DNA from: an uncultured virus (IMG/VR IMGVR_UViG_3300014819_001231)
Taxonomy: Duplodnaviria > Heunggongvirae > Uroviricota > Caudoviricetes
Direction: 5' to 3' (one strand)
Virus record (IMG/VR): IMGVR_UViG_3300014819_001231
DNA: 64,000 bases
Shown here piece by piece: positions 18,318 through 54,900 of the stretch. Every line of letters begins with the position of its first letter. The first letter of the stretch is position 1. Under the pieces are notes generated by a model. That model searched no databases, was not told the origin of the DNA, and worked only from the letters and a program-made list of their open reading frames with translations. The position numbers were made by a program, and so were the translations under genes.

Positions 18318-18692
18318 TCAGATTGACAAAGCATTCCTTTTAAAGAATCGAGTAATCATTGAAGATGGAGAACAGAAATCCTGGAAATCTTTAATTACTT
18401 TTTTGGGTGAAAATTTTCTACAGGAAAATAAATCAAAATATGATTCTTTTGTTTTCGTGTCAAAATGCAGAGTAATGTCTGATGTTTCAATTATTTGAAC
18501 CGCCGATAATCCAAAAATACCTTCCTTGGCGTTTTGATGATAAACAACGATTGGTTCCCCAACAGGGACCATATTTGTATCCTTTACAAGTTTCTTCAAA
18601 AACTGAGACACAGCTTTCACATCGAGGCACACTTCTGTCTCGCAATTTTTAGCATCTATGGTAAGATGCCACCCAAAATTTCTATAATGCAC
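18318..18692 (-). CDS. speD: S-adenosylmethionine decarboxylase proenzyme-like (pyruvoyl family)
   Basis: GWHLTIDAKNC, GLSAVQIIETSDITLHF, YFDLFSCRKF. Confidence 0.75.
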   Translation of the reverse strand: MHYRNFGWHLTIDAKNCETEVCLDVKAVSQFLKKLVKDTNMVPVGEPIVVYHQNAKEGIFGLSAVQIIETSDITLHFDTKTKESYFDLFSCRKFSPKKVIKDFQDFCSPSSMITRFFKRNALSI

Positions 18693-38500: not shown

Positions 38501-41500
38501 AGAAAGAATGTCAAAATTTTTAGGACTATACAATAGTGTATTATTTTGGAACCGGCCAAAAATCACCGATGCATCTGATCTGTTTACTACCCCCACCAAT
38601 GGTTTAGACAATGATGAAAAATACAGTGAAGTGGTTAGACCCCTGCCATATGTCTCAAGATTATATGTGGTTACGTGATTAAGATCATTATTATTTTGCG
38701 CAATTGGGAGATTCGTCAAAGTAAATTGCGTGAGAGTTTTATCCAAGAAATCTATGCCGTTGATAGAATTAGATAAAAATAACCTATTATCAAATGATTT
38801 GATGTCATAAATTGAACCTTTTGGCCCAGATAATAATAAATCATCCGAAAACACATAAGAAATCTGAGGATTAAAAATAGAACTAGAAAATGTAATATAT
38901 GGAATAGTTCCAATTCCGTAACTATTTCCTGTAACGTTTATAGAATTTATTACCGTACCACTTAAGGTTATACCATTGCTGCTAAATGAAACAGAAGAAG
39001 TAGATATAGAAACGATTACACTTGTTGCAAATCCACCAGAAAGTGAATAATTAAATCCAGAGTTTAAACTGAATACTTGGTCTGTTCCATAAACATTAAC
39101 ACTTTGAATTGAACCATTACCCATTGTCACATTTGCAATTGTTGACAAACCATTAATTAATAATTGAGGAACACCAGTGTATCCAAATCCAGGGTTTGCA
39201 ATGCTCATGCCTGCTAGTCTGTAGATTAGAGAAGGAGTTAAAGTGGCCCCAGAACCTGATCCTGTTGATGTAACAGTTAATGAAATATTTGATGTAGTGC
39301 CAATACCCGCACTGCTAACAGAAACAGAATAAATTGAATCATAGTTTATAGAATTTGTTGAATTAGCGGGTATAATTACCGCGCCACTTCCAAAACCACT
39401 ATTGCCCACCACTGTAATTGTTGGGAAGGAAGTGTATCCATATCCTGGGTTCGTCAGGCTTATACTGAATATTGATGAGTTCAAACTTGTTGTTACTGTA
39501 GCGGTAGCTTGCGCTGTCCCTACACCGGCAGGAGGCGCTGATATCTGCACAGTGGCACCAGAAGTGTAACCAATACCAGGATTAAACACTTGTAATTGAG
39601 CAAGAGAGCCTCTGAGTACAACATTGAATTGAGCGCCAGATAAATTTGTTGCAGAAATTTTAGGGATTGTTTTATATTGACTGCCTGCACTAGTTACTAT
39701 TACTGAACCAATTCCATAACTATAGATTGGCGACAACTGTGATGGCACATAAGTAGAGCTTACGCTGTAGCTTATTGCATTTCCAGACCATAAACCAGAA
39801 TTTATAACATTAATTGATTGTAATTTTATCAGCTGTGTTGAGATTTGTTGCCAAATACCCGCAGTAAGATTAGAGCTTAATGTTCTGAATAGCCTAGGAT
39901 AATTTAAAGTGCTTGCATATACATATTCTGTATTCTCTACAGGAAATGTATGAATTTCAAATTTTGATATTGGAAGAGGTGCGCCACCGATTTTGAATTG
40001 AGCGAATGGACCAGTGATCAAGCCATTCACATATAAATAAGTTTTACCTAAATTGTCTCCAATAATTACATTACCATTCACGTTTTTCATTGCAGTGATG
40101 GCATTGGAATAAATGAATCCAGAATAAATTACTTGAACAAGTTTCACTCCGTTCCACACAAAAAGTGTGGCAGAATTATTTTGAGAAGCGCCAATCAGCA
40201 ACACAGGATTATTACTATAGGTAGCTCTTTCGATCACTGTGAATGTGCAATTAATCAAAAGTTTAGAAACAATATTCCAGGTATAAGTATAAATATTTTG
40301 ATTATTTGTGTTGCTGTTGTAAAGTACGTTGTTTGCAAAATCTTTAAATTGAAATTCTGCAGAAACAATACCATCTGCAACGCCATCTGGTAAATAAATA
40401 TTTGTATAGTTGTCGTAATCTATCCAATTTGAGAATGTTTTCTCGGGCAAAATTCTATACCTAAAAGATTTTACGCCACTCACAATGTCTGATGCGTTCA
40501 ACTGAGCCACAACCGATGTGGATGATGTAATTGAGATCGGCGTGGCGTAGTCTTTATTTACAAAACTAACATTGGCAATTGGCCCTTGAGTATCCACTAA
40601 TGCAGTTTCAATATAAAAACTCTCCACCTCATTTGTTTGAGATATATTCCCAATATTGTCAGCTACTTGAAGAGAATATCTATAAAATCCTGAAAGTGGC
40701 TCACCTACAACTAGGCCTGTATTATCTGAGACATAAGATGGATATGCAACAAAAGTGGCAATACCGTAATAACTATTGTTGTTCATACTAAACCAGCTTC
40801 CATAAATAATCTGGTTAATAGGATTTTTCTGAACAATTCTTGCTAAATTTAATCCGCTACCACTATCTAAAACTGTAGACAAGCCAAGTAAAACAATTTT
40901 GCCTGTGTCACTTATTGAACTTAAAATCCCTAATGTTGGTGCAACATTATCAACAATATAACACGAAGAAAATCCGCTTTGCGGAGATTTTATACCAGCT
41001 TCGTTAATCGCATAAACTCCACTTGTTAAATATTTATTATTAGAAACAGAAATATAGTTTATGTCATATGTAGAAAAAGCTTGATAAATTATTCCTGGAT
41101 TTTTGAACATTCTATAATCTGTGCCATAGTTGGAAAGATTAAATGAAGATCCTTGCGTGATCAATGGGTTATTATTTCCAGAAAAAGAAATTAATAAATT
41201 ATAACTTGCCGGGAATAAATTTGTAGTTATTCCAGCAATTTGGCTTGAAGAAATTGCAAAATTTGAAAATACTGTATTATTCGAGCTACTTTTATCTAAT
41301 AGATTTGAAAAATAATTATTTTGGAGCAAAGAATTCCATTGAGTGGTTGCATCCGTTTCAGTGATGTAACCCTTTGGTGAATTTACAAGTTTAATTTTTA
41401 CTTGATCAGCCGAATTAGTATTTTGTGTTAAAAGCGAACTGATCGCCACACGGATATATTGTGGGTAGTTTAGATATGTAGATATACCAGTGGTGAGTAA

Positions 41501-44500
41501 TGCATTGCTTGATAAATACAATGGAACTTGAATTATATTGGGAATCCACTCTCCAGTGATCAAATCTTCTAACCAAAGAGTATCACCAAAAATATTTCCC
41601 TGTTGTACATAAATTGTATTTTCATTTGATGATAGATTGTACTTTAACCATTGTTGGTATTGAACTTGATAAACACCATTTTGTGTTTTGTCTTGTTGAC
41701 CGGCCACTAAAACAAAATCACAATGGTTAAGATAAACTCCATCTACATATGTTAATCCGTAAAGAGATAGCGCACTTGTAATCGCAGCTGTTACATTAAA
41801 TAACGGGGCGGTAATTGGCGGATTATAGCTAAAATTTGTTACTTGATTTTGAGCAAAATAAGCACCGATTAATGGAAAGTCAAACTCAGATTGGTTTAAT
41901 ACATTCTGTGAAAGCAAATTCTTTCCATAACTACTTGAATAATCAGAATTTTGGGCTGAATATAAATTAAAATATGTAGAATTTATTGAGCTTTCCAAAT
42001 AGTTATAATTTGATGTCACATTTGTAGAATTTAAAATTGTAACATTACCATTTCCAGAAAGAGAAATGAATGGATAATAACCATAAGCTAATGAAGCATT
42101 TTCGCCAGGGTCTGATTGATATTGCGATACTTTAAATGATAAATCTATAGAGCCATATTTAATACTCAAAATAGGAATTAATTTAAACCCGTCATCAATA
42201 TTAGATCTCACAATCGTTAATTTAGCTACAGCTGTAGCATCGATACTTGGAGAAAATCCATCAAAAATTGTGTGAATTGTATAATCACCAGAACTAGTAA
42301 TTAAATTAATATTCACTGGCCCACTATTGGCACTAGAGTAATTTGTAAAATCTAAAGCAAAAGCTATTATATTTGAAACTCCGGTTAATGTTCGTAAAAG
42401 TGTAGGCTGATTATAATATTGACCCAAACTGGCATTTTTTGCACTCGTATCAGTAAGGCCAAAAACTAATTTTCCATTCATATTTATGGATTTGTTTGGC
42501 GTAAAACTAATTAAATTTGAAGTGGAACCAGCAGAATCTGGAACCGGAACATAATAATTATAGGAATTAATTGTTGGGTCTAGTGTTGGGTTTGCGTTCG
42601 CCGCACCGCCATATATTCTTAGTTTTGCGTACCTTGTGTTTGTTGCCGCATTTAAATTGAATGTGATAAGCATTCTTCCGGTTTTCACATCAAAAGATTC
42701 ACTTAATGTGACATAAGGTGTAGCAACTGAACCTGATGAAGCATAATTAGTCCAAGTAATAAAATCTGGCGAAGTTTCTATTGAATATTTAAAATCTGGC
42801 AATGAGGTGGGGCAATCGGGAGGATTTACCACTTGAATATTTATAGAAAATTTTTGAATGGTTCCTATTGTTGAAAAATCGTACAAGAAGTTAATACTAT
42901 TAGTTATTGTAGTAGCTGTTGTAGTGACAGCAACAGACGTGGGACTAATTATATTTTGAGAAATTGCATTTATTGTGTAAGAATCACCAGGATTTACACT
43001 TTTTGCATTAACAGTAATTGTATTTCTTCCAACATTATTGACTGTAACTTCTTGAGAAATAATATTTGCAGACGGGTTGCCATTGGTGTTAATGTAGTAC
43101 GAGAATGTATCGCTGTTTGTTAAGTTGCCGCGAGTTTTAATAACAGCAGGAGGGGCAAGAGTGGCATTTGGGTTTTTTGATGTGTAATAGAAAAGATTTG
43201 TTGAAAGAGGATTTGATATTGAGCAGATATCACTCGCTGTCGAGTCAGAACAATATAAATCATACTGTGCGTTGTTATTCCAAGATAATTGGGCAAATAT
43301 ATTGTATTGAGACAAACTTTGAGGCAAAGTTTGTCCCACCACTTGGATTAATGAATCAGAAAAAGTAAAATCGTTAAAATTTGTATTAGAATCAACAGAC
43401 CAGCCAATCTTAACTGGGCTGAATCCCTTCGCGTTGGTATAAAATTCAACAGAAAATGTATTCTCTAATGAAAATGTTGGAATGCTTGATTGGGCTTCTA
43501 TTAATGTAAGATTGTTATTATTTGGGTTTGATGAATTAGAATACAACAAAAGATTGCCCGAATAGTCATTTTGAGAATTATAACTAATTGTTCCAGAGCT
43601 TGATGAATTATATAATTTAAACCATGTATTTAGTGAATCTTGGTTAGCAAAATTATAATAATATGGCAGTGCGCTTTGAGGTGAAATTTTTTCAGAGGGA
43701 GTTACTGAAGCTGAAATAACCCCGTATGCTAAACCATATTGGCTAGCCTCCACCGTTATTGATGTAGAGGCATTACGAACATAACATCTTAGTTCACAAT
43801 ATATGTTTGTGCTGATTGCTAAACTTGATGAAAAAATCTGTTCATTTAAAACAACATAACTGGATTCACTATCCGTTTTATAAAGGCTTTTTAATTGGAA
43901 AATATTATTGGTTGTGTCAATTATCTCAATAAGAGTGATAATTGTTCCACCTTGGAAAATTTTAGAAACTAATTCTGGATTAAAAATAGTTTGAGATACA
44001 TAATTAATATCAGGCACATAATTAGCATTTGTACTCCAGGTGGAATCATCAATAGAGGTATAGATGGTTAAACTTTGTGTGGAAATATCTGCAACGAATT
44101 GTTGTCTTACGAATTTTTTATTTGCGCCTGTAGTTGTGCTATTGACTAAATTGCTTTCTAAGAAATATATTGCCCCAGCACTGTAACTGGGTATTGTGTC
44201 AAGCTTATAGTGTATTTCGCTCCAATATATGTTGTTTGAAGCCGTAAGTTGAAAAGCATTTGACGATATATAATCTGCGTAAGATGCGGAATTTCCAATA
44301 TTAGCAGATGGACTAATTGTATAAGAAGCCGGAACATTATTATCTTTGTTGGATATTGGCGCAGTATTAAACAAATAGCTATTTGTACTTGTGTTATTTC
44401 TATAGCTGTTGCTTGTTGATATCAGAAGCAAATTGTCCCAAAAATAAGAAGTGATCGAGAGATCAGTTGACCCTATTAATCCGCTTGAGCTTGAAGTATT

Positions 44501-45124
44501 AGCAGTTAAAACAACGGGGCTGCTAACATAATTGCTATAATTATTAAGCACTATTGGAGCTGTAGGAGAATATATCGTATCGGATAGAACGTAAATTTCG
44601 TCATAACCAGAAAGATTGTTAGGAAATTGAGCGGTAGTCCCATCAGAGAGTAATACATTGAAATTAAAGAATATTCTTTTGGCCCCCGAAGAATTACTAA
44701 GGGGCCACCCAGAAATAACTATATTCCCGCTTCCAGCTTTTTGGGTAAAAGTTAAATTATAAGTGCTGGGCAACGAAATGGCGCTTATATTCTGGCTTGT
44801 CAAATCAAANNNNNNNNNNGTTCCGCTGAAAGAACTTGGCAATAAAGTAAAAATTTCAACAAAATTCGGATCATTTGAAATTGATATTTTGTTAAAACCC
44901 ACTATGTTAGGCTGGGGCTGATCTGATCTTGGATCGTCATTGAAAAGTTGTAAAGAAAAAACTAATGCTACGGTGTTGTTATTGGCATTAAATGTTTGAT
45001 AGCTGTTGTTCAGCACTTGATTTTGACCCACTAAATTAATATTTTGTGGATTCAAAATTATTGAGTTTTTAACATATTTACTTAATAGTAACCCTTTTGG
45101 TGCTAAATATAAATTCCAAGCCAT
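32519..45124 (-). CDS. Giant (about 4200 aa) virion structural/adhesin protein with RCC1-like and GxGY beta repeats
   Basis: GYLHNLAI...VYAIGDNTYGQLG, LWSFGDNSYYCLG and VFAWGFNTSGQIG are RCC1-like. Many xxPGxGYTxxPxV repeats; VDGVYL...VLVAGQQDKTQNGVY. Spans a 10-N gap at 44810-44819, so the exact length is uncertain. Confidence 0.7.
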   Translation of the reverse strand: MAWNLYLAPKGLLLSKYVKNSIILNPQNINLVGQNQVLNNSYQTFNANNNTVALVFSLQLFNDDPRSDQPQPNIVGFNKISISNDPNFVEIFTLLPSSFSGXXXXFDLTSQNISAISLPSTYNLTFTQKAGSGNIVISGWPLSNSSGAKRIFFNFNVLLSDGTTAQFPNNLSGYDEIYVLSDTIYSPTAPIVLNNYSNYVSSPVVLTANTSSSSGLIGSTDLSITSYFWDNLLLISTSNSYRNNTSTNSYLFNTAPISNKDNNVPASYTISPSANIGNSASYADYISSNAFQLTASNNIYWSEIHYKLDTIPSYSAGAIYFLESNLVNSTTTGANKKFVRQQFVADISTQSLTIYTSIDDSTWSTNANYVPDINYVSQTIFNPELVSKIFQGGTIITLIEIIDTTNNIFQLKSLYKTDSESSYVVLNEQIFSSSLAISTNIYCELRCYVRNASTSITVEASQYGLAYGVISASVTPSEKISPQSALPYYYNFANQDSLNTWFKLYNSSSSGTISYNSQNDYSGNLLLYSNSSNPNNNNLTLIEAQSSIPTFSLENTFSVEFYTNAKGFSPVKIGWSVDSNTNFNDFTFSDSLIQVVGQTLPQSLSQYNIFAQLSWNNNAQYDLYCSDSTASDICSISNPLSTNLFYYTSKNPNATLAPPAVIKTRGNLTNSDTFSYYINTNGNPSANIISQEVTVNNVGRNTITVNAKSVNPGDSYTINAISQNIISPTSVAVTTTATTITNSINFLYDFSTIGTIQKFSINIQVVNPPDCPTSLPDFKYSIETSPDFITWTNYASSGSVATPYVTLSESFDVKTGRMLITFNLNAATNTRYAKLRIYGGAANANPTLDPTINSYNYYVPVPDSAGSTSNLISFTPNKSINMNGKLVFGLTDTSAKNASLGQYYNQPTLLRTLTGVSNIIAFALDFTNYSSANSGPVNINLITSSGDYTIHTIFDGFSPSIDATAVAKLTIVRSNIDDGFKLIPILSIKYGSIDLSFKVSQYQSDPGENASLAYGYYPFISLSGNGNVTILNSTNVTSNYNYLESSINSTYFNLYSAQNSDYSSSYGKNLLSQNVLNQSEFDFPLIGAYFAQNQVTNFSYNPPITAPLFNVTAAITSALSLYGLTYVDGVYLNHCDFVLVAGQQDKTQNGVYQVQYQQWLKYNLSSNENTIYVQQGNIFGDTLWLEDLITGEWIPNIIQVPLYLSSNALLTTGISTYLNYPQYIRVAISSLLTQNTNSADQVKIKLVNSPKGYITETDATTQWNSLLQNNYFSNLLDKSSSNNTVFSNFAISSSQIAGITTNLFPASYNLLISFSGNNNPLITQGSSFNLSNYGTDYRMFKNPGIIYQAFSTYDINYISVSNNKYLTSGVYAINEAGIKSPQSGFSSCYIVDNVAPTLGILSSISDTGKIVLLGLSTVLDSGSGLNLARIVQKNPINQIIYGSWFSMNNNSYYGIATFVAYPSYVSDNTGLVVGEPLSGFYRYSLQVADNIGNISQTNEVESFYIETALVDTQGPIANVSFVNKDYATPISITSSTSVVAQLNASDIVSGVKSFRYRILPEKTFSNWIDYDNYTNIYLPDGVADGIVSAEFQFKDFANNVLYNSNTNNQNIYTYTWNIVSKLLINCTFTVIERATYSNNPVLLIGASQNNSATLFVWNGVKLVQVIYSGFIYSNAITAMKNVNGNVIIGDNLGKTYLYVNGLITGPFAQFKIGGAPLPISKFEIHTFPVENTEYVYASTLNYPRLFRTLSSNLTAGIWQQISTQLIKLQSINVINSGLWSGNAISYSVSSTYVPSQLSPIYSYGIGSVIVTSAGSQYKTIPKISATNLSGAQFNVVLRGSLAQLQVFNPGIGYTSGATVQISAPPAGVGTAQATATVTTSLNSSIFSISLTNPGYGYTSFPTITVVGNSGFGSGAVIIPANSTNSINYDSIYSVSVSSAGIGTTSNISLTVTSTGSGSGATLTPSLIYRLAGMSIANPGFGYTGVPQLLINGLSTIANVTMGNGSIQSVNVYGTDQVFSLNSGFNYSLSGGFATSVIVSISTSSVSFSSNGITLSGTVINSINVTGNSYGIGTIPYITFSSSIFNPQISYVFSDDLLLSGPKGSIYDIKSFDNRLFLSNSINGIDFLDKTLTQFTLTNLPIAQNNNDLNHVTTYNLETYGRGLTTSLYFSSLSKPLVGVVNRSDASVIFGRFQNNTLLYSPKNFDILSDWQLVKNYNFGGISTVSLTGINSSLLSIYTTNGQTFYQSTKNNIWFNRCYNNSNYGITFIFEALSGTQAFEISNFSSILKVTFTVREENLLITFGNNTFTQVTTNIQSLYSLTIIKDNNSIYINDNKLNIVLASTSNFFTTGVQANPIIRFGYLYEPENVLTNGTSNLILGYAQTSSSQFIWHSLQIGFSTNIVSNSLNYNVNTSYVLPNSDSIRVLRNLDGYLYAVSKSIHDQRSTTILSDLSSKIFRFNGNVWSDVTGNFENNLIGISSIYTIVSPNDINSLSGSYFLSGILNKITSKKQPQASIIVGLSTGSTYEEQNINAVIIYPYNPNPAGTFIYLSSNSSVVNPPSSIYFGPQDVVKVIQIGLGSTSIATTANLIATDSASISTASFTINPITISGISLSTSSYVSYSNNVIVSTVTLVATPKTSRTYQLISSKNNLLGAPNAGIQTVLAGSISSTATLINGIATFASTQITVNAIYRGISTATITDNPFVLTSTLSSGLNSGIFTGNQYYGKVIYTGQLSAAPSGNFPINIISSAPTILGFPVGVVTVLPNTFSTSIPLTIGVAVTNSTSINITGIATGTISTASITALPLLIKSTTANTYNPVIGLQTSYITYTLNTTPASNVTIVNIISSPVSINMVYSGLTTVLSGNISTTFGLSTTVQASAIGLAITVQGAPFGFNTSPVPGLILSTEIWRISNFNISPITITGGANNSNGIAQSFIITANLNFSTSGLSTSITLSASSGVVGFNTTILSFNGSATSTGYATGFTTSIITGLAITAYGPNGYTSTFGGLTVTPFLINSFKINPVWPYLTSGISTLNLIGGIGATAVGTVVLSAYVATGIQTVLFSSVYPGLFIYNQSASYPVLGIGTVSANSNTASVSFGAGQTSAYISTSVTAILQSSPSGIGTTTINIDSIPTYSLVFNPFFSTSQTTFNITLNKILPISTSLGVAISNYNNTYTLPSNQLGAGYQFNIGSFKTDIVFTGFVTYLGSTQKYFISGFANSGGPFGMGYNYAGSLSKYNPNTGVPKNALKYYMGLPNVVKTASGYLHNLAINNLGYVYAIGDNTYGQLGKNNLGTQNTSTFVRVNFSYSARDIYAQNNSSYVITSDNSLWSFGDNSYYCLGTSIPVSGASTSVPYLMSTSVQLFSVFNYRGAVVTFNNQTGIQSLFEFGQYQTNIGLTSKTITQLTYNGSTRNISNLVISSIDVGPQHTVASGSWTDVALGASSSGVFAWGFNTSGQIGLATTTVYIPTPNILTKYNSSNNVVPIEFSNLIFADSQFSLVVAGNIPNNQGYVSGASISSSGIGYTAGAVVAFSTPPAGVNTALATGIAVTSGGYITSVSISSSGFGYTSGATVLFSAPATGIGTTTATGIAVTNNGQIVSVVLTNPGLGYTQTPTMTFYGNNGFGTLATGYASISYAQVTSIVITAPGFGYTQAPSVTISGNSNFGSLATGFAVISSNATNINSIYITGSTNAYNSAGLTASITTVAMANYFPQGLSIYGAPIYKIAKDSQHYVWTLGVGSVYVTGGVVPYLPSVSSGVKNNNSLYASGSYSGSAYLTYKDFGSLSGIAAILFSASFESSSLYGSVPQKAVQSFNQYSTYYPDYGGYMVVLGSQGVDIYYAQQNYSATAKSWIGFIQGAQDISVGGYDATYNSTTFPGTPATGWIYILDYSNSNNNWTVTLVEIQSAYNSKDSAYTPGEPLLYVASQFNTTNKPTFIDGSQIYGFVSSGWGISDQNNVPYLLNFAVGFNDGAVNLYGFRSNTGSNEIITSWNIGSSVSCLKSLYIDDQNRVLFVAGQNGDLYAYDAYGYTGNAPFWFTNLSAGQTLTNLAYTNIITQSGNQFGYINFIENYAEGAIIAATSTNYILVINIADLKIKAYVKVPATINSIMWGNSYNANNPPIGSSPDYIYVTTLSGLLAGTTFAYYFPVVNNYEIGLNYANSQGVAQLLTYNGSKTSTGMTNIFHSSTNDTMTLVLDSSRPRG
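44810..44819. other. Assembly gap (10 N)
   Basis: Run of N in the sequence. Confidence 0.99.
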
Positions 45125-45133
45125 TCAATTAAA

Positions 45134-45160
45134 TTTTACTGTTTTTTTTGAATTTATCCT
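45134..45160 (-). promoter_or_regulatory. Putative phage late promoter AGG-N19-TAAAA (representative of 11 copies)
   Basis: AGG at 45160-45158, 34 nt before the ATG of the 4201-aa gene. The same motif occurs at ten other gene starts. Confidence 0.6.
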
Positions 45161-46035
45161 TTAAATATTTCGCTAACTTGAATAAGTTCATGATTAGAAA
45201 TAAAAAGACAATTTGTCAAAATAGACGGCGAGGAAGATCTGAAATTAAACACTAAAGAATCGGCAACAAAATTTTCTATGAGAATTAAAAATTTTCCAGA
45301 AGATTCATATTTTTTTATATTAGATGTAGTAACGCTTTGGCAAAAAACATCTGCGCCAAATCCGAAAAAAATCAATTTATCTGACAAAATTGAAGATTTT
45401 GTGATTTGTATTTCTAATAAATTTTGATTATCGAAAGAATACCCTGAAGAATTAACATTAAAATCACCATCTAATAGATAAAAAGCCTTCCGCCATTTGT
45501 TAAATTTTTCAGATTTCCACAAAATATTTAGATTTTTGTTTTGTTCATTATTGGGGTTAAAAACTTGATGTACATCATCAATTAAAAATGTTTTTTGATT
45601 CAAAGTTTCTTTTTTATGAAGCGCATAAGTGGAGGGCTCTTCATGGCTGTGACATAAAACGGAATTTATGTAAAAAGAAGGTAGCTTTTCAAATTTAACA
45701 TTTATCATTTTTTGATCATAAAGATAATTTAATTTTTTAACAATTAATATATCATTTAATGCTTGTATTTTATCGCCTTTGATTAAAGAGTGTGCTTTCA
45801 CAAAATTTTGTTTTTCTACACTAAACAAATTAACAAAAAAAGTACAGATAAAAAATAATCCATTTTCAAACTCTATCTCAACACAATCTGATTGAAAACA
45901 AGTGGTGCCAACAACCTGACAATTTTCGATAAGATCCGAATCATTTAAAACAATAATTTTTTGTCCACTGACAGTATCTAGAACCGAATCACCATTTTCG
46001 GTGTGTATATAATGATTGAAATAAAATCCTTGCAT
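45154..46035 (-). CDS. Protein with N-terminal degenerate Hint domain
   Basis: GFYFNHYIHTENG...IEFENG..FICT...VKAHSLIKGDKI...SFYINSVLCHS. No Cys1 and no block-B His. Confidence 0.7.
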   Translation of the reverse strand: MQGFYFNHYIHTENGDSVLDTVSGQKIIVLNDSDLIENCQVVGTTCFQSDCVEIEFENGLFFICTFFVNLFSVEKQNFVKAHSLIKGDKIQALNDILIVKKLNYLYDQKMINVKFEKLPSFYINSVLCHSHEEPSTYALHKKETLNQKTFLIDDVHQVFNPNNEQNKNLNILWKSEKFNKWRKAFYLLDGDFNVNSSGYSFDNQNLLEIQITKSSILSDKLIFFGFGADVFCQSVTTSNIKKYESSGKFLILIENFVADSLVFNFRSSSPSILTNCLFISNHELIQVSEIFKG

Positions 46036-48311
46036 TATTTTAATCCTTCAATTAATGTAAACGAAACGGCGGATTTTACTGACGTCGATGCCATGGCTTT
46101 AAACACAGAATTGTTTAAAGAATTATTTTTGAACAATTCTGAAACATAATTTTCGGAATGACTAAAAATACCATTTGCAAAATAATTACCTAAATCCTCA
46201 AACTTCAATGCGTAAACTACTTTACTATTTATTTTTTTTACATTCTTTAATTCTTTAATGCCATTTTCGCACAATATATAATCTCCCTCGGTGAGCGCCC
46301 AAGCATGTAAAAATTTATATTGGGTAAATGAAAACACACAATGACTATCTGAGCATTGTAATGTGGTGTCATCAAATATTAACTCATAAACAATATCATT
46401 CAAAATACTAAATTTTTCATTGACTTTATAATTTTTTTTATTTAGGTCAGCATCTAAACCACATACTAAATCTCCCATGCATATCTGTTCCACTTGAACT
46501 TTTCCAGTAGGTGTAGAAATTAAACTTCCTTCTACTACGCAACTAGGTGTACTTTTCGAGCCAACCCACTCAGCATCCAATACTTTAAACGTACTTTCTT
46601 TTATTTGATTTCCAGAAGATTGAATATTTTTTGTAATAAAATTTGGCAACACATCTTGGCTATGACTCAATACCCCATTAGCAAAATAGCACCCACCATT
46701 GCTTAAGAATATACCCACAACCGGAGATGGTTTTAATATTTGAATTGATTTTATTGTCACCTCTTTGTCAATCAATTTTAATTTGTCTTCTGTGGTTAAT
46801 TGATAAACTTTTTTAAAATTTTTAATATTTTCCACATAAACACAATGTGATTCAGAGCAAATGAGTTCACTTTCTTCAAAAATTATTCTATATGTTGCTT
46901 CTCCTATGGAATAGGTAATTTTTTCTATTTCAAATGTGGAAAAAACATTATTTCCTATTATGCCAAAAACTTTATCTTTAATTTTCAAAGATTCCACTGG
47001 CACTTTTTGCATTTTATCTATATTAACAAGGGTGCCAAGGGCAACACAGCTACCTGATGAACTAGGTGATGGACTAGGTGAAGGACTAGGTGAAGGACTA
47101 GGTGATGGACTAGGTGATGGACTAGGTGATGGACTAGGTGATGGGCTAGGTGATGGGCTAGGTGATGGACTAGGTGATGGACTAGGCGATGGGCTAGGTG
47201 ATGGGCTAGGTGATGGGCTAGGTGATGGACTAGGTGAAGGACTAGGTGATGGGCTAGGTGATGGGCTAGGCGATGGACTAGGTGATGGACTAGGTGATGG
47301 GCTAGGCGCGATTTCTTTTACGCGAACAGCATAAAGACTAGCGCTTGAATCAGTGTAATAAATTGCATCGGTGGATATAATTACTTCTGATGTAGCTGAA
47401 GAATTGTATTTCCAATTAACTGTATAATTTTGCCCTGCATCGATGATGCAAATAATATTTCCAGAATCATTTATGAAAATTTGATTATTTGGATTATTTT
47501 TTGATATTGATGGTTTTACGTTATAAACATTGGTGAAAGGTTCCGAAGAAACCCAAATTGTTGCCCCTGTAAGTGGGTTTATTTTTGCCAGCCCACCTAT
47601 ACTTGCATATAGATAAAGGCCATTTGTAGAACCATCGAGTGCAATTGTGGGATTTAAACCAGAATTTAAATAAGTTTTAGACCATAAAACATCAAATCCA
47701 TTTACATTAACTGCAACAATTGTAGATGGACTGCTAATAATTGCATTTTGTATATTTGAGCATGAGATATACAAAGTATTAATATTATCGCAGATCATAT
47801 CATATGGAACAAGATTATTTCCTAGCGTAACACGATTAATAATAGTTCCATCAGATTGATAACTTGTTAAAACTAAATATTTATTTGTATTATCATAAAA
47901 TGCATTATAAATAATATCAGAGGAATCTATGCAAATTGGTGCAGGCATCTGATAATTTCCGGAAGCCCCGTTCCAAATTGTGCTCCCCGCATAACTTATT
48001 GAATTTAAGCCATATTGTGAATTATCTATAATTAAACTACCATCATAATATAGTGATGGTTTGTCCGAGCAATTTCCATTATTTTTTATCCATGATATTT
48101 GCATATTGTTAGTTAATAACAATATTTCATTTTTTGTGCCAAAATATAAATCATTATTCGTATTAAAGAAAAACAAACTATGTGGCGTAACAGAACCAGA
48201 ACCGACATTGTAATTAAAATTTTTAACAAGTGTTCCTTTTGTTACACTATCTTGGATGAAATATATTGTTGCATTTTGATTAGAGGAGCCTAAGTAAACA
48301 ATATTCCACAT
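46035..48311 (-). CDS. PQQ-like beta-propeller, (Pro-Ser)41 linker and two tandem Hint domains
   Basis: Propeller blades (LWSKT, INPLTGATIWV, WKYN...LYAV). Hint1 CVALGTLV...CSESHCV...YFANGVLSHS (47048-46659). Hint2 CVVEGSLI...CSDSHCV...YFANGIFSHS (46541-46155). Confidence 0.85.
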   Translation of the reverse strand: MWNIVYLGSSNQNATIYFIQDSVTKGTLVKNFNYNVGSGSVTPHSLFFFNTNNDLYFGTKNEILLLTNNMQISWIKNNGNCSDKPSLYYDGSLIIDNSQYGLNSISYAGSTIWNGASGNYQMPAPICIDSSDIIYNAFYDNTNKYLVLTSYQSDGTIINRVTLGNNLVPYDMICDNINTLYISCSNIQNAIISSPSTIVAVNVNGFDVLWSKTYLNSGLNPTIALDGSTNGLYLYASIGGLAKINPLTGATIWVSSEPFTNVYNVKPSISKNNPNNQIFINDSGNIICIIDAGQNYTVNWKYNSSATSEVIISTDAIYYTDSSASLYAVRVKEIAPSPSPSPSPSPSPSPSPSPSPSPSPSPSPSPSPSPSPSPSPSPSPSPSPSPSPSPSPSPSPSPSPSPSPSPSPSPSPSPSPSSSGSCVALGTLVNIDKMQKVPVESLKIKDKVFGIIGNNVFSTFEIEKITYSIGEATYRIIFEESELICSESHCVYVENIKNFKKVYQLTTEDKLKLIDKEVTIKSIQILKPSPVVGIFLSNGGCYFANGVLSHSQDVLPNFITKNIQSSGNQIKESTFKVLDAEWVGSKSTPSCVVEGSLISTPTGKVQVEQICMGDLVCGLDADLNKKNYKVNEKFSILNDIVYELIFDDTTLQCSDSHCVFSFTQYKFLHAWALTEGDYILCENGIKELKNVKKINSKVVYALKFEDLGNYFANGIFSHSENYVSELFKNNSLNNSVFKAMASTSVKSAVSFTLIEGLK
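47061..47306. repeat. 12-bp tandem repeat, about 20.5 copies, encoding (Pro-Ser)41
   Basis: Unit RCTAGGYGAWGG on the plus strand. Confidence 0.95.
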
Positions 48312-50022
48312 TCATATCAATAATGGGTGCGGTAGATTTGTTTTGGGTTGCGCTTGGTGTATATTTCCAAGACAAATATGGTTGTAAAATCCCCCCAGCC
48401 GTAGCAGGTTTATTTAAAGTGCCAGCACAATTTGTTTTGCCAGTATTCTGTAGATCATATCCATATTTAGGCCAACAGCTTTCTAAAAGCGGATATCCAG
48501 ACTGAGGCGAACAAGAAATGTTATAAATTTTGAAATCGTAAATTCTTATTTCGTCATATACAAAATAATTTACAGCTTTAGATAAATGCACTTCAAATGA
48601 ATTCAGAACAACATCCGTGGCTAATCCAGGTATTATTCTAGAAAATTGAAAATAACATTGGATAAAATAATTCGCGCCAACATTTATTATTTTTGAATTT
48701 GTGTTATCTAAGCACAAAGTGAAAATATAAGGTTCATCAATATTTACAAAATAATAATAAAATTGCACGGTGTAGGTATTCAGATTGATGTTTGAATTAG
48801 ATAAGTCGCTATAAGAAATAAAACACAGAGAACAATATTGCCAGTTTAACCAAGCAAAATTATTCAATGAACCTATGGGATAACCTGCCATAATGCTGAT
48901 CAACCATTGATTATTGACTAGCGGTAGTCCATTAACCCCTGAATATGTCGCGGCCACATAAGTGGTTGTTTCAGGTATTTCAAAATCATATAAATTATTA
49001 ACTGTACCTACGTAAGAAGCAGGCGGGCTTCCTAATAAACTTGACCAATATGGGATAAGCGTGGAATATTTTTGCGTGATATAAATGTAACAACAAACCC
49101 CACTTGATTGTGAATTAATGCTATTGATTGTTGCACTTGAAGATGAAGGATATGGAGAAATAGGCCCGCCCGAGATATTGAAACTAAAATTGTATTTTTT
49201 GTTTAAAGTAAAACTTGACAATTTTACCATAAAAAATTTAGTCCCATTTTTTATTCCATTCAGCGTATCATCCGTTATTTTAATTGGGCAATAATAAATT
49301 GAACCTAAATCATTATCACCAATCTTATAAATGTTAAATTTTGTGCTTGATCCAAGAAGGCCATTAAAATATTGGTAAATATATAAATTGTAAATATTAC
49401 TTTCTATTAAAAGGTTTTTTTCATATAAATCTTTCGGATCTATTATGATTTCAGCGAAAAATGATGTTACATTATCTAAATCGTTTGTATTGATTATTTG
49501 CAAGTCATTAACTGATTCAAATCTATTAGAAAAAATAGATGTTTGGGGATCAAAATTTTCATAAAAAGTGATTGAAAAACTGGGCGAAACATTATTATAA
49601 ATTGGCACTCCCTGTGGCACAGTGGGCGCATTTAAAGAAATAAAATTTGTATTTTTCGAGTTATCGTTTAGTTTTATTGAAAAAACTTTTTCATTTAGCA
49701 CTGAAATAATCAAATTTTGATTATTGATCAGAGTGGCACCGGGGCAATAAATTGTGTAAATTGTGTTATTATTTTCATAATAGAATTCATTTTGGTTTAT
49801 TTTTTTAATAGAATCAAACTTTAATCCCAAAATGTCAAAACTATCTGACATAAATTTTATTTCTAGATAGTTATTATTAATGATAGCAGATCCAGTAATG
49901 TTATTAATTTTGATGACATTATCTTGATATAAAGCATTAGCAACAGAACACAATTTTTGATTATTGTGATATATTAAAATGCCATTTTCTGAATTCTCTA
50001 TTTTAATCATAATGTCATTCAA
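48280..50022 (-). CDS. Virion-associated protein; C-terminus is the start of a PQQ-like propeller
   Basis: 580 aa. Ends WPKYGYDLQNTG...WKY...TAPIIDMN and overlaps the next ORF by 32 nt. Confidence 0.65.
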   Translation of the reverse strand: MNDIMIKIENSENGILIYHNNQKLCSVANALYQDNVIKINNITGSAIINNNYLEIKFMSDSFDILGLKFDSIKKINQNEFYYENNNTIYTIYCPGATLINNQNLIISVLNEKVFSIKLNDNSKNTNFISLNAPTVPQGVPIYNNVSPSFSITFYENFDPQTSIFSNRFESVNDLQIINTNDLDNVTSFFAEIIIDPKDLYEKNLLIESNIYNLYIYQYFNGLLGSSTKFNIYKIGDNDLGSIYYCPIKITDDTLNGIKNGTKFFMVKLSSFTLNKKYNFSFNISGGPISPYPSSSSATINSINSQSSGVCCYIYITQKYSTLIPYWSSLLGSPPASYVGTVNNLYDFEIPETTTYVAATYSGVNGLPLVNNQWLISIMAGYPIGSLNNFAWLNWQYCSLCFISYSDLSNSNINLNTYTVQFYYYFVNIDEPYIFTLCLDNTNSKIINVGANYFIQCYFQFSRIIPGLATDVVLNSFEVHLSKAVNYFVYDEIRIYDFKIYNISCSPQSGYPLLESCWPKYGYDLQNTGKTNCAGTLNKPATAGGILQPYLSWKYTPSATQNKSTAPIIDMNVEYCLLRLL

Positions 50023-51937
50023 AAGATATTAAATTATCTTTCGTTGTGGGCTGAATAGGCTGAACATATATATATTTTATAACAAAATCTTTCAAAGACC
50101 TTAAAATTATTGTTTCACTATTTTTTTCTAAAACAATCATGCTCGAATGAGTTTCATAATTAATTGCATCTATTTTGTAATTAATTTTTTCTACATCATC
50201 AAATATAATTGCCATTTTTTCAAAAACAAAATTAATTTTTATATTAGATAGCTCATTTGATTGAATATTCTTATTTATTTCAAATATTAATAATGCGTTT
50301 TGATCAATTGCAAAAAAATTTTCGCCATTTATCGTAACTGAATAATTGCTGTTCAGCGATTTGTAGTTTTTATTTGGAATAAAACTTCTTGTAAAATTTT
50401 TAATATAAAATGGGTTTTTAACCAGAATGCCATTCAAATAATATGAACTTTCTTGCACTGTATCTAAAATCATTATTTTTTTTCCAGTAAAAGCAACGAT
50501 TTGTTCAATATTTTCAAAACCTTCTATAGTTTTAATAAAGTGTTTTTTAGTGAGATTCAAAACTGGGACTAGCCCATCATTGGTAAAAACTGTCATAAAC
50601 TCATCCAATATTACTTCAAAATTTTGTGTTTTTATTTTGTAAGCAACTTCGGATTCTACTTCTAGGTAACTTTCAGCTAAGCAATATTCATTTTCGCTTG
50701 CAAGTGGATAATTTTTGAAAATCTCAAAATAATTTTGTTTCCTTTTAAAAATATCATAAACATGTAACTCATCATTTTGTGACAAAGTGGAAAATGCGCT
50801 CACAGCAGTGGTATTAAGAAAATTAAAATATGTAATTGTGGTGAATAAATTTGTTGACGAAGGATATGTATTCAAATTAATTTTTAAGATAGCGCTTACT
50901 ATATTATCATCTGGCAACAATATATTTCCCCCAGCTATATTTGGTGAATTAATTGTATTTTGATTTGAAAATTTAAAAACAAAATTATAAGCTGATGTAT
51001 TTGTTTGATTTTGTAAAATTACAATTGGTTCAATATTATAGATTTTGCCATAAGATGTTTTTAAATACAAATTCAAAGAAGCATTTTTTAAATTCATCAA
51101 AACATCATTTGTTAAAAGTGTACATCCGAAATAATAAATTTTATTAGCAACAAAGTTAACACCATAGGGTGATCCGTTATTCAGAAAGTTGATTTGTAAT
51201 TCAAACAAAGATCCATAAAAATTATAAAACGCTTGCGAAGGATCAAACACAAAACTGGGATTATTTTGAGTAGTTTGCAAATATCCTACTCCACTTGAGT
51301 TAGTGTCATAATTAAAAACAGAATAGCTCAATTGACTTAATAAAAATGAATTATTGAAATATTGGCTGTATACATTAGTTTTGTTTACCGACAAAATATT
51401 AGCCGAAGAGCCAGATGAAACAAAATCTGTGACCATACCGCCATTTGAGCAATTAATTGTAATCGGCGTGGAAATTTCTATATTAAATGATCGTGTCACG
51501 CTAAAGAAAATTTTTCCATCAAGCTGAGAAATGTAATCAGAAATTGGAAGAGAAAAGATGGACCAATAAACCGAATAGTCTTCTTGTTTTGAAATCAATG
51601 TCATCGGTGATATGGTAATGACATCATTAAATGTTCTTTTGAAAATATACGATGAGGGGTTCGTGTCTGGTTGCGAAGAAAAAACAATTATCTTTGCATA
51701 AAAAACGCCACTATTATTTTGAATACCTTCAATGTATTTTTTTTTGTCATCGCCCGATGGGTCTACCGGAAAATAATCATCAGAAATAATAGTAGATAGT
51801 ATTTGGGCTCCGTTAATTTGTTGCCTTTTGTAATAAAAATTATTTCCATCAAACTGGTCGTAAATTGATATTGAAAATTGAGGAAAATTTAGTTGCTTCG
51901 GCACTTCACTTTGTGCTAATGTTTTAAATTCTGTCAT
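50015..51937 (-). CDS. Protein with internal degenerate Hint domain
   Basis: AYKIKT...VFTNDGLVPVLNL....IKT..G...I...SYYLNGILVKN (about 50788-50414). Confidence 0.6.
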   Translation of the reverse strand: MTEFKTLAQSEVPKQLNFPQFSISIYDQFDGNNFYYKRQQINGAQILSTIISDDYFPVDPSGDDKKKYIEGIQNNSGVFYAKIIVFSSQPDTNPSSYIFKRTFNDVITISPMTLISKQEDYSVYWSIFSLPISDYISQLDGKIFFSVTRSFNIEISTPITINCSNGGMVTDFVSSGSSANILSVNKTNVYSQYFNNSFLLSQLSYSVFNYDTNSSGVGYLQTTQNNPSFVFDPSQAFYNFYGSLFELQINFLNNGSPYGVNFVANKIYYFGCTLLTNDVLMNLKNASLNLYLKTSYGKIYNIEPIVILQNQTNTSAYNFVFKFSNQNTINSPNIAGGNILLPDDNIVSAILKINLNTYPSSTNLFTTITYFNFLNTTAVSAFSTLSQNDELHVYDIFKRKQNYFEIFKNYPLASENEYCLAESYLEVESEVAYKIKTQNFEVILDEFMTVFTNDGLVPVLNLTKKHFIKTIEGFENIEQIVAFTGKKIMILDTVQESSYYLNGILVKNPFYIKNFTRSFIPNKNYKSLNSNYSVTINGENFFAIDQNALLIFEINKNIQSNELSNIKINFVFEKMAIIFDDVEKINYKIDAINYETHSSMIVLEKNSETIILRSLKDFVIKYIYVQPIQPTTKDNLISFE

Positions 51938-54900
51938 CAGCCACCACCTGTCACGCCACCGCCTGCACCGCCTGTTTTTCCTTTAGTGCTTGTACCATTA
52001 AAATTATTTGTCCCGGTTGGATTGTTGCCAGTATTTGCACTAGGCGAGCTACCTGCCCCGCTACCTGTATTTGCTGCTCCCACCGTGTTTCCAGATCCAT
52101 CCGAGACAAATTTCCTAAAGAAAATAGTTCCTAATTGTCCTGTGGTATCTGTCACATAATATTTTCCATTAAGTTGAGAATTTAAGCTCACAGGTTTATT
52201 GAGAACATTATTCACCACAAAATCTGTTGTGCTATCAGGTTTTATTCTTACAAGTTTACTTCTAAGACCAAGCCCAGCCCAATCATAAAGTATAGCCACA
52301 TATTCATCAGAATCTGGAATTACTTTAGTTACTGTTGAATTAAATTCAAATTTGTTTATGAAGAAATTTTTATTTCTGTCATAAACATAGATATAGCTTG
52401 GTGATGTACTAAGACCGATGGATGGTTTTGATGTGGTATAATCTATAGATGGTTGAGCAATTAATAAACTATTTCCAGGTTGATTAAATCCCCTATCAAG
52501 CACCACGGTAGACCCACCAAGTTTTTCATTGAATACAAAATTTGATTGACCAATTGTGTAAAGGCTTTCGAAGGAAGAGTTGTATGCTCTAATTGAATTG
52601 TTGCCAACAGTGCTTATAATTAGATCATTTGCATCTGTATAGTCAACATGAATCGGTTTAAAGATATTATCAATATAGATATTTCCAATTGTAATGAGAA
52701 TAGAATAACTAGATGAATAATTTGGTGATGGATAATAGCTCCAAAGCACTGTAGAAGGCGAGCTTGTGTTGTTTGCAAAAACTGTAGGATCAGATGATAC
52801 AATTGTTACATTTGGCTGATAGTCCAATATTGTTCCTATTCCAAAAAGGGAATTATATTGGAATTCATTGAAAGATGTAGTGGTATACGTAAATGTTTCA
52901 GCGTCAGAGGCAAAGCCATCGCTTCTTGGATTTGCTAATGCGAATGGAGCCGTGATTGATTGGTCTATTTGGAAATAGCTCGGCCCACCTTCTCTGATGA
53001 TTAAATCCATTGCCGGTGTCACTGTGGCATAAAATGTAGCGGATTGAGAATTAGCATTAATCTTGTAGAGGCCAGCTAAAATAGATCCATCAGAAAGGTA
53101 GCTAAAATATGTTGGATCAGACAATGGATAATTCACACCATCCACTTTTATTGATAAATATTGTATATAATTCGCGGCAAAAACAAGATATTGACTAAAC
53201 AATGCATAGATTTGCATTGTTTTCGGGTTATAATACACGCCAAGAATTACGAAATCCCTATCTAATCTGGAAAGTTTTATATTACCTTGAATAGCGGACA
53301 AAAATTGCCCGTTTGAATCCACCTCTAATACTCGATCATTATCAGTGTCGGCAATGAAATATCCACCGCCCCCATTTGAAATATAGTGCTGGGGGTTCAA
53401 TAATGAAGGAGCAGAACCAATAAAATTCTGATAGGGAGAAATATAATAATTATTATTAATGTCTAAAAATGAATTAAATTCCGAAGACCCAAATTTTAAA
53501 GTATTAGTGCTTAAATAGAAATAATTATTTATTTTTGTTGTATCAGCAATTTGAATTTGATATGCTTGAGTATTATCATTATCAACAGGCAGAATTTCAA
53601 GATTGCTACTATTACCCTGTGACCATTTAAACCTTGGATAAGTTATTACAGGTGAGTTATTAACATTGGTATTATATATAATTCCATTAGCAATTCCATT
53701 AACATTAAAAAACAATGATATGCTACTGATTGTTGGTGGCTCAAATCTGTCAGCGGATGATTGCAAATAGAAAATTAAATCAATATATCGAGCTTGCTTA
53801 TTGATACTTAATGCTTCGCCAGAAACTATGCCAATTGAAACATCATATCCATAATTTTGCCAATTACCATTTGCATTTAAATCACCAATATTATTCGCGG
53901 TTCGATAATTAAATGTTATCTTTGCTTGACCGTTCGCAGAAGTAGGCAAAGAATATTCGAAAATTGCATAGTCAAAAATCGCATTGCCACCAGGCCCAGC
54001 GTCGTACCTAAAAACAAAATATCCAGAAGTGGCATATTGGCCAGCATTAAACGCAAAAACAGAATCGTTTGTCAATGCATTTTTTTGTTGGTAAGCTAAA
54101 ACTTGAGGATAACTGGAATAAAGTGTATTGCTAGGAAATGGAGGCAATATAAATTCCAAATTTAAAGTGTCATTATTTAACCAACCATAGTTAGTGGACC
54201 ATAAAAACCCAAAACCAAAAATTTGTGGCTGTACGCCACCATTTTGTCCAGTAAAAGCACTTAAATTAAAAATTTTAGCCACTGAGGTAGGCCCACTCTT
54301 ATAAGTTCCATTAGAAACAAGTTGTCGCAGAGGCTGAATTGTAGAAACTCTAATTGAATTTAAGCTAGATCCAGATGGTGTTAAATTGAAATTTATCAAA
54401 TTACCGTTTGCAGATACTGGGTCAAAAATCAAATAGCAGTAAATATCACCAAGAGTAGCACCTGTAATAAAATTTTCATTCAAACTGGATATAGCTACCG
54501 CTATTTTGTCTTCATATTGAAACGCAGGATAAGAATTGTAGATAAAATTATACTTGTCTGTTTTTCCACCCTCGATTCCAGGAGTCACAGATTGAGCCAC
54601 ACCCCATGTCCAAGTGGTCGGTCTATTTGACAAATTCCAAGAACTTGCAACCGAAAGATAAGAATTAGGTTTAGATAAAGTTACACCACCACTAGTCAAA
54701 GATGTATCGGCAACACCAAATGTAAATGCAGTGAAACCTAAGCCATTGCTATTTGCAAATGAAACAGAAGTGGTGATAGAATGAATTCGATTATTTAAAC
54801 TATCAGACACAAATGCAGTGTTGAATCCAGATTGAGCAAAAATATTAGCTGGCCTTTCAAAATAGATTGCGCTTGAAGTATCAGAAGTTATACCAGCTAC

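Follow-up and report, generated by a model that had tools for sequence, protein, structure and literature searches.

We analyzed a 64,000-nt stretch of DNA from an uncultured virus (IMGVR_UViG_3300014819_001231; hereafter, the window, whose positions are used as coordinates throughout), in which four minus-strand open reading frames (ORFs; P0004, P0003, P0002, and P0001) lie between two giant genes and belong to one modular fiber-like gene family of uncultured jumbo phages. The proteins carry four domains of the Hedgehog/intein (HINT) superfamily, Hint1 to Hint4. Hint1 and Hint2 keep the set of residues used in the first step of protein splicing and lack all those specific to the second and third steps, a combination that tentatively points to N-terminal-only autoprocessing by Hint1 and probably Hint2: the arm that precedes them would most likely be cut off by hydrolysis or thiolysis of a thioester. 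Hint3 and Hint4 are catalytically dead. All parts lie on the minus strand, and the four domains are placed as follows.

46659-47048, minus strand: Hint1, P0002 residues 422-551; Cys422, block B CSESHC, end YFANGVLSHS followed by Q
46155-46541, minus strand: Hint2, P0002 residues 591-719; Cys591, block B CSDSHC, end YFANGIFSHS followed by E
45646-46035, minus strand: Hint3, P0001 residues 1-130; without Cys1, block B CTFFVN, end LCHS followed by H
50414-50788, minus strand: Hint4, P0004 residues about 385-508; without Cys1, block B LDEFMT, end ILVKN followed by P

All four domains belong to the HINT superfamily. They translate with the coordinates and sequences described in an initial annotation of this DNA, whose assignment of a Hint fold to each of them was borne out by Pfam for Hint2, and more generally by BLASTP, hhalign, and AlphaFold models of Hint3 and Hint4. 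Scanned alone, Hint2 scored 29.9 bits against PT-HINT (PF07591), above the curated cut-off of 27.7, and 26.2 bits, below that cut-off, when scanned within the whole protein. Hint2 alone also touched Intein_splicing and Hint_2 (PF13403, the profile of B-type bacterial intein-like domains), both below their cut-offs, and the Hint_2 match (25.5 bits against a cut-off of 28.4) covered only profile positions 2-34 of 147. The isolated Hint1, Hint3, and Hint4 matched no Hint family in Pfam, and Pfam Hint (PF01079) was unmatched in the proteins and in the isolated Hints. The Pfam families named in the initial annotation were thus recovered in part: PT-HINT was passed by Hint2 alone, PF01079 was not matched, and Hint_2 stayed below its cut-off.

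Among the domains themselves, Hint1 and Hint2 aligned over 134 residues with 28% identity (BLASTP E 6e-17), and the C-terminal half of Hint3 matched Hint2 with an E value of 2e-6. The pairwise BLAST match of Hint4 was weak (E 0.076). A family hidden Markov model (HMM) built without Hint4 recovered it at 26.3 bits when run against a small set of 49 targets, and profile-profile comparison of the P0004 family with the Hint family by hhalign gave a probability of 97.3% (E 2e-11) over P0004 residues 398-508. Searches of the PDB with phmmer gave only marginal matches (6y75, E 0.057; 2lwy, E 0.5).

AlphaFold models were made for P0001, which contains Hint3, and for P0004 residues 347-640, which contain Hint4; the assignment of Hint1 and Hint2 is sequence-based. 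The P0001 model had a mean predicted local distance difference test (pLDDT) score of 69.8, with the Hint part mostly at 74-89, and matched the gp41-1 intein (6riz; Z 16.4, root-mean-square deviation 2.0, 122 residues aligned), the bacterial intein-like (BIL) domain of C. thermocellum (2lwy; Z 15.6, Foldseek E 1.6e-7), and the Hedgehog Hint 1at0 (Z 14.8); Foldseek agreed with these matches. The P0004 model had a mean pLDDT of 69.6, with the Hint part at 66-94, and its best PDB matches were mini-inteins, BIL2, and, lower down, Hedgehog (6riz, template modeling (TM) score 0.79 over 123 columns; 1mi8, TM 0.75; 6fre, Foldseek E 1.2e-5).

Passages in three sources (PMC7765530, PMC4031507, PMC7664689) state that the first splicing step needs Cys or Ser at position 1 together with the block-B Thr and His, the second a Cys, Ser, or Thr at position +1, and the third a terminal Asn, with assistance from the His of block F and the penultimate His. 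According to further passages, Hedgehog uses the first step only (PMC7664689), BIL domains lack a +1 nucleophile and yield mainly cleaved products (PMC7664689, PMC7765530), and C-terminal cleavage no longer occurs once the terminal Asn is lost (PMC4031507). The block-A Cys1 and a block-B Ser-x-x-His are present in Hint1 (C422, S-E-S-H) and Hint2 (C591, S-D-S-H) and absent in Hint3 and Hint4, in agreement with the initial annotation, which had described Hint3 as lacking both and Hint4 as lacking the block-B His.

We then compared these positions in an alignment of 47 non-identical family Hints from three paralog classes, which includes close relatives and near-duplicates. Hints were counted as active-like (n = 30) when they kept the block-B His and either had Cys1 or were cut before position 1. 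In these 30, the residue after the penultimate His was Ser in 24, Thr in 4, Cys in 2, and Asn in none, and the next residue was Gln (23) or Glu (7). The 14 degenerate Hints, which have lost Cys1, the block-B His, or both, carried Asn (7), Ser (4), Cys (2), or Gly (1) at the same position; the two fragments without block B had Ser followed by Gln, and the first Hint of one related locus (L013) had Asn followed by Ser. Pooled, these 17 other Hints continued with Gln (9), Asn (3), His (2), Asp (2), or Ser (1). The penultimate His was invariant (47/47). In block F, with a register set by eye against the canonical motif and therefore approximate, the His equivalent was Gly in 30/30 active-like Hints and the Asp equivalent was Asp in 0/30, the position being occupied by Gly, Ser, Thr, Ala, Lys, Arg, or Gln. 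Because the terminal Asn, the +1 nucleophile, and the block-F Asp and His are all missing, neither splicing nor Asn-driven C-terminal release can follow in Hint1 and Hint2; the residue following them was never a splicing nucleophile.

The terminal position of the active-like Hints holds exactly three nucleophilic residues (30/30), and this would suit an unusual C-terminal chemistry in which the conserved Ser, Thr, or Cys is itself the nucleophile, or in which the Gln, Glu, Asp, or Asn one residue on cyclizes. The N-terminal part could then be taken over from Cys1 as a stable branched ester, or an N-to-O shift could cut the His-Ser bond. In 44 of the 47 Hints, the residue one further on is Gln, Glu, Asp, or Asn (the exceptions are His twice and Ser once), and inteins ending in Gln, Glu, or Asp cleave by cyclization, according to a passage in PMC4031507. 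We consider this the least probable of the alternatives and give it only a slim chance: Ser, Thr, Cys, Gly, and Asn are also small one-step neighbors of an AGY/TCN Ser codon, Hint3 copies with His-Asn-Gln indicate that the Gln is kept whatever precedes it, the block-F His that assists cyclization is absent, and no precedent turned up, although none was specifically searched for.

The codons at the terminal position suggest different histories for the Hint classes. The first Hint ended in Ser in 20 and in Thr in 1 of 21 sequences; ten loci use TCA or TCT for this Ser, whereas the window and locus L004 use AGC, so that Ser has been held across a two-step switch between its codon families. In Hint3, by comparison, Ser is encoded by AGC/AGT, which a single step separates from the Asn codons AAT/AAC of sister copies, and the terminal residue toggles between Asn in L004 and Ser in the window. 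Among the other Hints found in the same exhaustive search (n = 206), 194 ended in His-Asn, five in His-Ser, and two in His-Thr, and two of the five with His-Ser seem to belong to the fiber Hint family. The His-Ser end of Hint1 and Hint2 is thus unusual and selected, and that of Hint3 is recent drift in a dead domain. The initial annotation was right to expect a conserved His-Ser rather than random decay, but the three His-Ser ends that it counted are not independent, given the toggling of Hint3.

Many of the more distant matches from this search (P0024, P0026, P0028, P0031, and P0034) consist of arrays of three or four Hints joined head to tail by ...VHN-K-G-G-C..., with the next Cys1 within about four residues of each His-Asn end; Lys follows the end in 134 of the 206 outgroup Hints. 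The first Hint type of the fiber family also has extra conserved cysteines, two flanking block B (CSESHC) and one in block F (GCY, 18/30 active-like), which could form a redox or metal site.

Hint3 and Hint4 of the window are clearly dead yet conserved: Hint4, which lacks the block-B His, has a K-N-P end that is invariant in 4/4 aligned homologs, and Hint3 is kept together with a C-terminal domain (CTD) as a gene of its own in two lineages. Such retention would also be expected if the Hints were no longer enzymes and served as compact beta-domain spacers or as oligomerization or docking units, with Cys1 and His kept for structural reasons, such as a disulfide or metal site formed among the four conserved cysteines of Hint1. 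The extra cysteines of Hint1 and the missing block-F Asp and His would be in line with this. We nevertheless regard it as unlikely for the Hints as a whole: Cys1 is present in every full-length first Hint, and most degenerate copies that have lost it have lost the block-B His as well, so that the two behave like a working pair and carry a catalytic rather than a structural signature; the penultimate His is invariant; and the Hint-bearing protein P0022 ends shortly after its Hint.

Autoprocessing by the first Hints would act on the parts of the fiber protein that surround them, which in the window are the following.

47310-48311, minus strand: PQQ-type beta-propeller, P0002 residues 1-334; variable distal part of the fiber
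47061-47306, minus strand: (Pro-Ser)41 linker, P0002 residues 336-417, followed by SSSGS and then Cys422
45157-45528, minus strand: CTD, a predicted beta-sandwich that terminates the fiber protein in relatives

The propeller matched Pfam PQQ_2 with an E value of 3.6e-6 and 27.3 bits, against a cut-off of 27.6, and its homolog in L004 reached 32.1 bits. At the place of the linker, relatives have PT-, S-, or PS-rich sequence. Beyond the end of Hint1 come Q and then a conserved xx(H/L)Px(F/Y) tail.

The analysis establishes the folds, the conserved residue pattern, and the architecture of the genes, and from these we infer thioester formation and cleavage, with its timing and location in the virion, as follows. 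Cys1, aided by the block-B Ser-x-x-His, would shift the preceding peptide bond onto its own thiol, so that the linker's final residue becomes joined to Cys422 as a thioester; Cys591 would react in the same way. This thioester at the end of the Pro-Ser (PS) tether would most likely be resolved by water or a small thiol, so that the arm formed by the N-terminal domain and the propeller is cut from the Hint-CTD module during virion assembly and the module acts as a self-removing C-terminal unit. The outcome would be similar to that of BIL domains and of the S74 chaperone domains in other fibers. Hint3 and Hint4 cannot start the reaction and are catalytically dead, structural domains. In P0022, about 37 residues are all that comes after a Hint of the first type, and a CTD is absent; this Hint should therefore act on its N-terminal side. 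Hydrolysis or thiolysis is favored because the Hint of P0022 is nearly terminal, the CTD is not adjacent to Hint1, and there is no Asp for hydroxyl activation.

A number of points weigh against this course of events. The terminal position is restricted to Ser, Thr, or Cys, though any residue would disable Asn cyclization, and this restriction, the conserved next residue (an invariant Gln after Hint1), and the xx(H/L)Px(F/Y) tail suggest an unexplained positive role. The block-F Asp, helpful in many inteins, is missing. In L001 and L008, a glycine-rich domain of ~250 residues, long linkers, and the CTD follow the Hint, and this part is more than a disposable pro-piece. The Hint counts are phylogenetically non-independent, coming from three paralog classes with several near-duplicates; the placement in the virion or tail comes from the gene neighborhood only; and by sequence, hydrolysis is indistinguishable from transfer. 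The restriction to Ser, Thr, or Cys, the Gln, the tail, and the glycine-rich domain therefore keep both the unusual chemistry described above and a transfer or ligation alive.

In such a Hedgehog-like transfer, the Cys1 thioester would be attacked by a chosen nucleophile, and the propeller arm would be tied covalently to a partner through its PS tether. Another virion protein could serve as acceptor through a Lys or its N-terminus, as could a sugar or lipid bound by the CTD in the manner of a sterol- or adduct-recognition region. The residue logic is that of a Hedgehog Hint, with Cys1 and without a terminal Asn or +1 nucleophile; the Hints precede a conserved domain, which is also the arrangement of Hog proteins; the CTD weakly resembles carbohydrate-binding beta-sandwiches (Z 5.7-6.8); and a long flexible tether before the thioester suits reaching a partner. 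BIL domains are also said, in the title of a 2013 paper by Aranko, to ligate without nucleophilic side chains. In Hedgehog, the block-F Asp activates cholesterol. The position aligned with this residue is Asp in 0/30 fiber Hints, which argues against the Hedgehog mode of hydroxyl activation; in addition, P0022 has the same Hint type without a CTD, the CTD otherwise lies one to three domains and long linkers away from the Hint, its fold matches fall below a meaningful level, and no candidate acceptor was identified. We therefore hold a transfer to be decidedly improbable.

The CTD itself was matched by its HMM in 10 related fiber ORFs and was modeled with a pLDDT of about 65-80. Its fold matches were weak (carmovirus P domain, Z 6.8; chitin-binding ChBD3, Z 6.4; xylan-binding domain, Z 5.7) and appear too low to mean more than a common arrangement. 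In the ESM Atlas, it gave only sub-threshold matches (score 0.79) to Bacteroidota proteins with NADase_transloc and Hint-like families, a lead that Pfam did not confirm. A more specific version of the transfer would make the first Hint a thioester launcher: the CTD or the Gln-x-x-His-Pro-x-Phe tail would pick a sugar hydroxyl or an amine of a virion or host-surface molecule, and an ester relay through the Ser, Thr, or Cys would fix the propeller arm there via (PS)41. We give this idea little credence.

The hydrolysis or thiolysis that we favor would take place in a protein whose plan is conserved. Protein collections supplied homologs, as did 12 related loci, which lie on metagenome contigs and on two jumbo-phage contigs in IMG/VR (347 kb and 167 kb). 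The neighborhood is fixed and consists of a giant NHL protein, a P0004-like protein of ~620 residues, a long Hint-bearing protein, and another giant protein. The long protein opens with a P0003-type N-domain, continues with a variable middle part and a low-complexity linker, and closes with one or three Hints and the CTD. The order of N-domain, variable middle, linker, and Hint was found in 11/12 related loci, including two that were found without a Hint query; L013 is the one locus without an N-domain opening its Hint-bearing protein. The N-domain HMM scored P0003 at 829 bits, with the window sequence itself among its seeds. Three Hints and the CTD occur in a single ORF of 1,295-2,067 residues in L005, L009, L010, L011, and L015, and a single Hint occurs in L001/L006/L007, L008, and L012. 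For the N-domain, the ESM Atlas gave nothing usable (pLDDT of its own model, 0.41), and no longer homologs were found, which is weak evidence since candidates were crowded out. Some homologs seemed to start in the middle of Hint1. Recoded stops or frameshifts were considered as the cause and rejected, since L009, L010, and L011 provide full-length ORFs of the same lineages; the database entries are thus fragments.

A P0004 homolog lies directly upstream of the fiber gene in 11/12 related loci. The first 190 residues of P0004 matched the fiber N-domain in hhalign (probability 97.4%, E 1e-11), and its C-terminal domain showed no likeness to the CTD in the same type of comparison. P0004 is thus a paralog of the fiber gene with a dead Hint. 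The initial annotation had presented the locus as a dedicated cassette of four Hints; this view gives way to a family in which relatives have one or three Hints per polypeptide and Hint4 sits in a paralogous gene.

Two modules of the family vary in character or position. The first Hint of L013 (L013:5368-5838, in a partial ORF of 546 residues) lies upstream of a family-type Hint and looks like an ordinary intein-like domain, with Ser1, a T-P-E-H block B, a His-Asn end followed by Ser, and a PT-HINT score of 43.5 bits; judging from these residues, it might be splicing-competent and show a possible ancestral state. A glycine-rich domain, matched by Pfam Gly_rich_2 in P0007 with an E value of 6e-4, occurs in both positions relative to the Hint: after it in single-Hint relatives (L001:10400-11400; L008 fiber ORF, residues ~760-1000) but before it in P0022.

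The ORFs of the window and the base that divides two of them are as follows.

50015-51937, minus strand: P0004, 640 residues; fiber-gene paralog with an N-domain-like part, the dead Hint4, and a C-terminal beta domain
48280-50022, minus strand: P0003, the conserved fiber N-domain, about 510 residues
46035-48311, minus strand: P0002, 758 residues
45154-46035, minus strand: P0001, 293 residues; separate gene with Hint3 and the CTD
48308, no strand: one extra base, which splits P0003 from P0002

These are four ORFs, not the three neighboring genes counted in the initial annotation, and the boundary between P0003 and P0002 comes down to a single extra base. The likely start of P0003 is the ATG at 50010, and its final residues form the first blade of the PQQ propeller, the rest of which is in P0002. 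At this place the window has one base more than L004, which has a single ORF there. Base 48308 is missing from contigs of four runs (X1, X2, X4, and X5) from four freshwater metagenome studies, at a depth of 8-29; one of these runs may be the source of the window itself. The extra base is probably an error or a rare variant of the window record. Because the frame from 50010 to 46038 is open over 1,324 codons without it, the natural protein runs in one chain from the N-domain through the propeller, (PS)41, and Hint1 to Hint2.

The boundary between P0002 and P0001 is of another kind. The ATG of P0001 overlaps the stop of P0002 (TAATG), which makes P0001 a separate but translationally coupled gene, and the closest relative, L004 (73% identity), has the same split with TGATG. 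Because L004 shares it with overlapping start and stop codons, the split is a real, lineage-specific gene fission at a linker. Hint3 and the CTD form a separate gene only in the window and L004 (L004:6993-7886) and are fused to the fiber protein in nine other loci, and the exact P0001 protein was recorded from 5 contigs.

The source of the window is an uncultured freshwater jumbo phage. The window has the look of a virion module, with a Mu Gp36-like adaptor, an Amidase_2 endolysin, and PHROG matches to virion, tail-spike, and baseplate-hub families, and the terms fiber and tail as used here are drawn from architecture and neighborhood. The giant neighbor at 32519-45124 encodes 4,201 residues with RCC1 repeats and short PHROG matches to baseplate hub and tail lysozyme; the one at 51937-57108 encodes 1,723 residues with NHL repeats and a Gly-rich tail; and both are syntenic in related loci. 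Metabolic-looking genes lie inside the phage window at 17535-18692 and 12043-12759, with matches to S-adenosylmethionine decarboxylase (E 1.6e-13), the arginyl-tRNA-protein transferase C-terminal region (E 1.1e-9), and DUF6065 (E 2.8e-72). No tRNA was found in the window.

In isolated phages, a DNA search with the region gave no match beyond its (PS)n repeat, which was hit by baseplate genes of cyanophages, and tblastn with the 1,723-residue neighbor and with Hint1-Hint2 gave no match; a scan of viral contigs with a single protein as query also gave none. Full-text literature searches found no description of Hint modules in phage fibers, which is limited evidence of absence. In one passage, a jumbo-phage review (PMC7824862) names only S74 domains as self-detaching fiber modules.

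Hint chemistry is already well understood in inteins, BIL domains, and Hedgehog proteins. What appears to be new here is the setting in a phage fiber, the tandem internal Hints with graded decay, the systematic replacement of Asn by Ser, Thr, or Cys, with a selected Ser, and the dead paralog. If Hint1 cleaves, it would represent a second, unrelated solution to self-removing fiber modules and a natural Hint of about 130 residues limited to N-cleavage, possibly a tool for protein engineering. If it transfers, phage particles would carry Hedgehog-type covalent modification. In either case, active, half-dead, and dead copies side by side form a natural experiment on the residues needed for the first step of splicing.

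Compared with known systems, the fiber Hints are closest in their mode of action to BIL domains, the first step of Hedgehog, or engineered Asn-mutant inteins. They differ from class 1 inteins at each point considered. No Asn, Gln, Asp, or Glu follows the penultimate His in the 30 active-like Hints, and Hint1 to Hint3 of the window end in His-Ser; the +1 residue is Gln, Glu, or His, and the alternative register, with Ser as +1, also fails for want of an Asn. The Hints, one to three in number, stand between low-complexity linkers near the C-terminal end of a modular protein, not as insertions at a conserved site of a host protein that also exists without them. With A-type BIL domains they share the Hint fold, the lack of a +1 nucleophile, and a place in variable, non-conserved proteins instead of housekeeping enzymes; cleavage and not splicing is expected of such domains, according to passages in PMC7765530 and PMC7664689. 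However, a passage in PMC7765530 describes a highly conserved C-terminal His-Asn in A-type BIL domains, whereas the active-like fiber Hints have Asn in 0/30; Asn is retained only in the dead Hint3 class (7/14 degenerate copies). The host here is also fiber-like and of phage origin, with tandem domains in graded decay that are followed by a conserved beta-sandwich domain.

The pretoxin HINT of polymorphic toxin systems lies before a C-terminal toxin and releases it. It is the best Pfam match of the fiber Hints (PF07591; Hint2 29.9 bits, first Hint of L013 43.5), but in the fiber proteins it is the N-terminal part that varies, another residue stands in place of the terminal Asn, and no toxin families were detected after the Hints of P0002 and P0001 with Pfam and PHROGs. 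The peptidase S74 intramolecular chaperone domain is similar as a C-terminal self-detaching module on tail fibers and spikes with low-complexity content, as described in a passage of PMC7824862. Its fold and its chemistry, which uses a Ser-Lys dyad, are unrelated, so that the analogy is one of proposed role only, and the S74 profile had no match in the Pfam and PHROGs scans.

Hedgehog and Hog proteins share with the fiber Hints the absence of a terminal Asn, an N-terminal cargo, a conserved C-terminal region, and the fold (Z 14.8). Their use of the first step only, through a Cys1 thioester, is stated in a passage of PMC7664689, and the sequence suggests the same for the fiber Hints. In contrast to Hedgehog, the fiber Hints are without the block-F Asp, further Hints and linkers stand between Hint1 and the CTD, the CTD is absent in P0022, and there is no sign of a lipid-binding region, with PF01079 unmatched. 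Finally, engineered N-cleavage-only inteins carry a terminal Asn-to-Ala change and are used for thiol-induced tag removal. The fiber Hints resemble them in having Cys1 and block B intact and the terminal Asn replaced, so that an outside nucleophile would resolve the thioester; here this state is natural, with a conserved Ser where the engineered forms have Ala, and it occurs in a structural protein of a phage.

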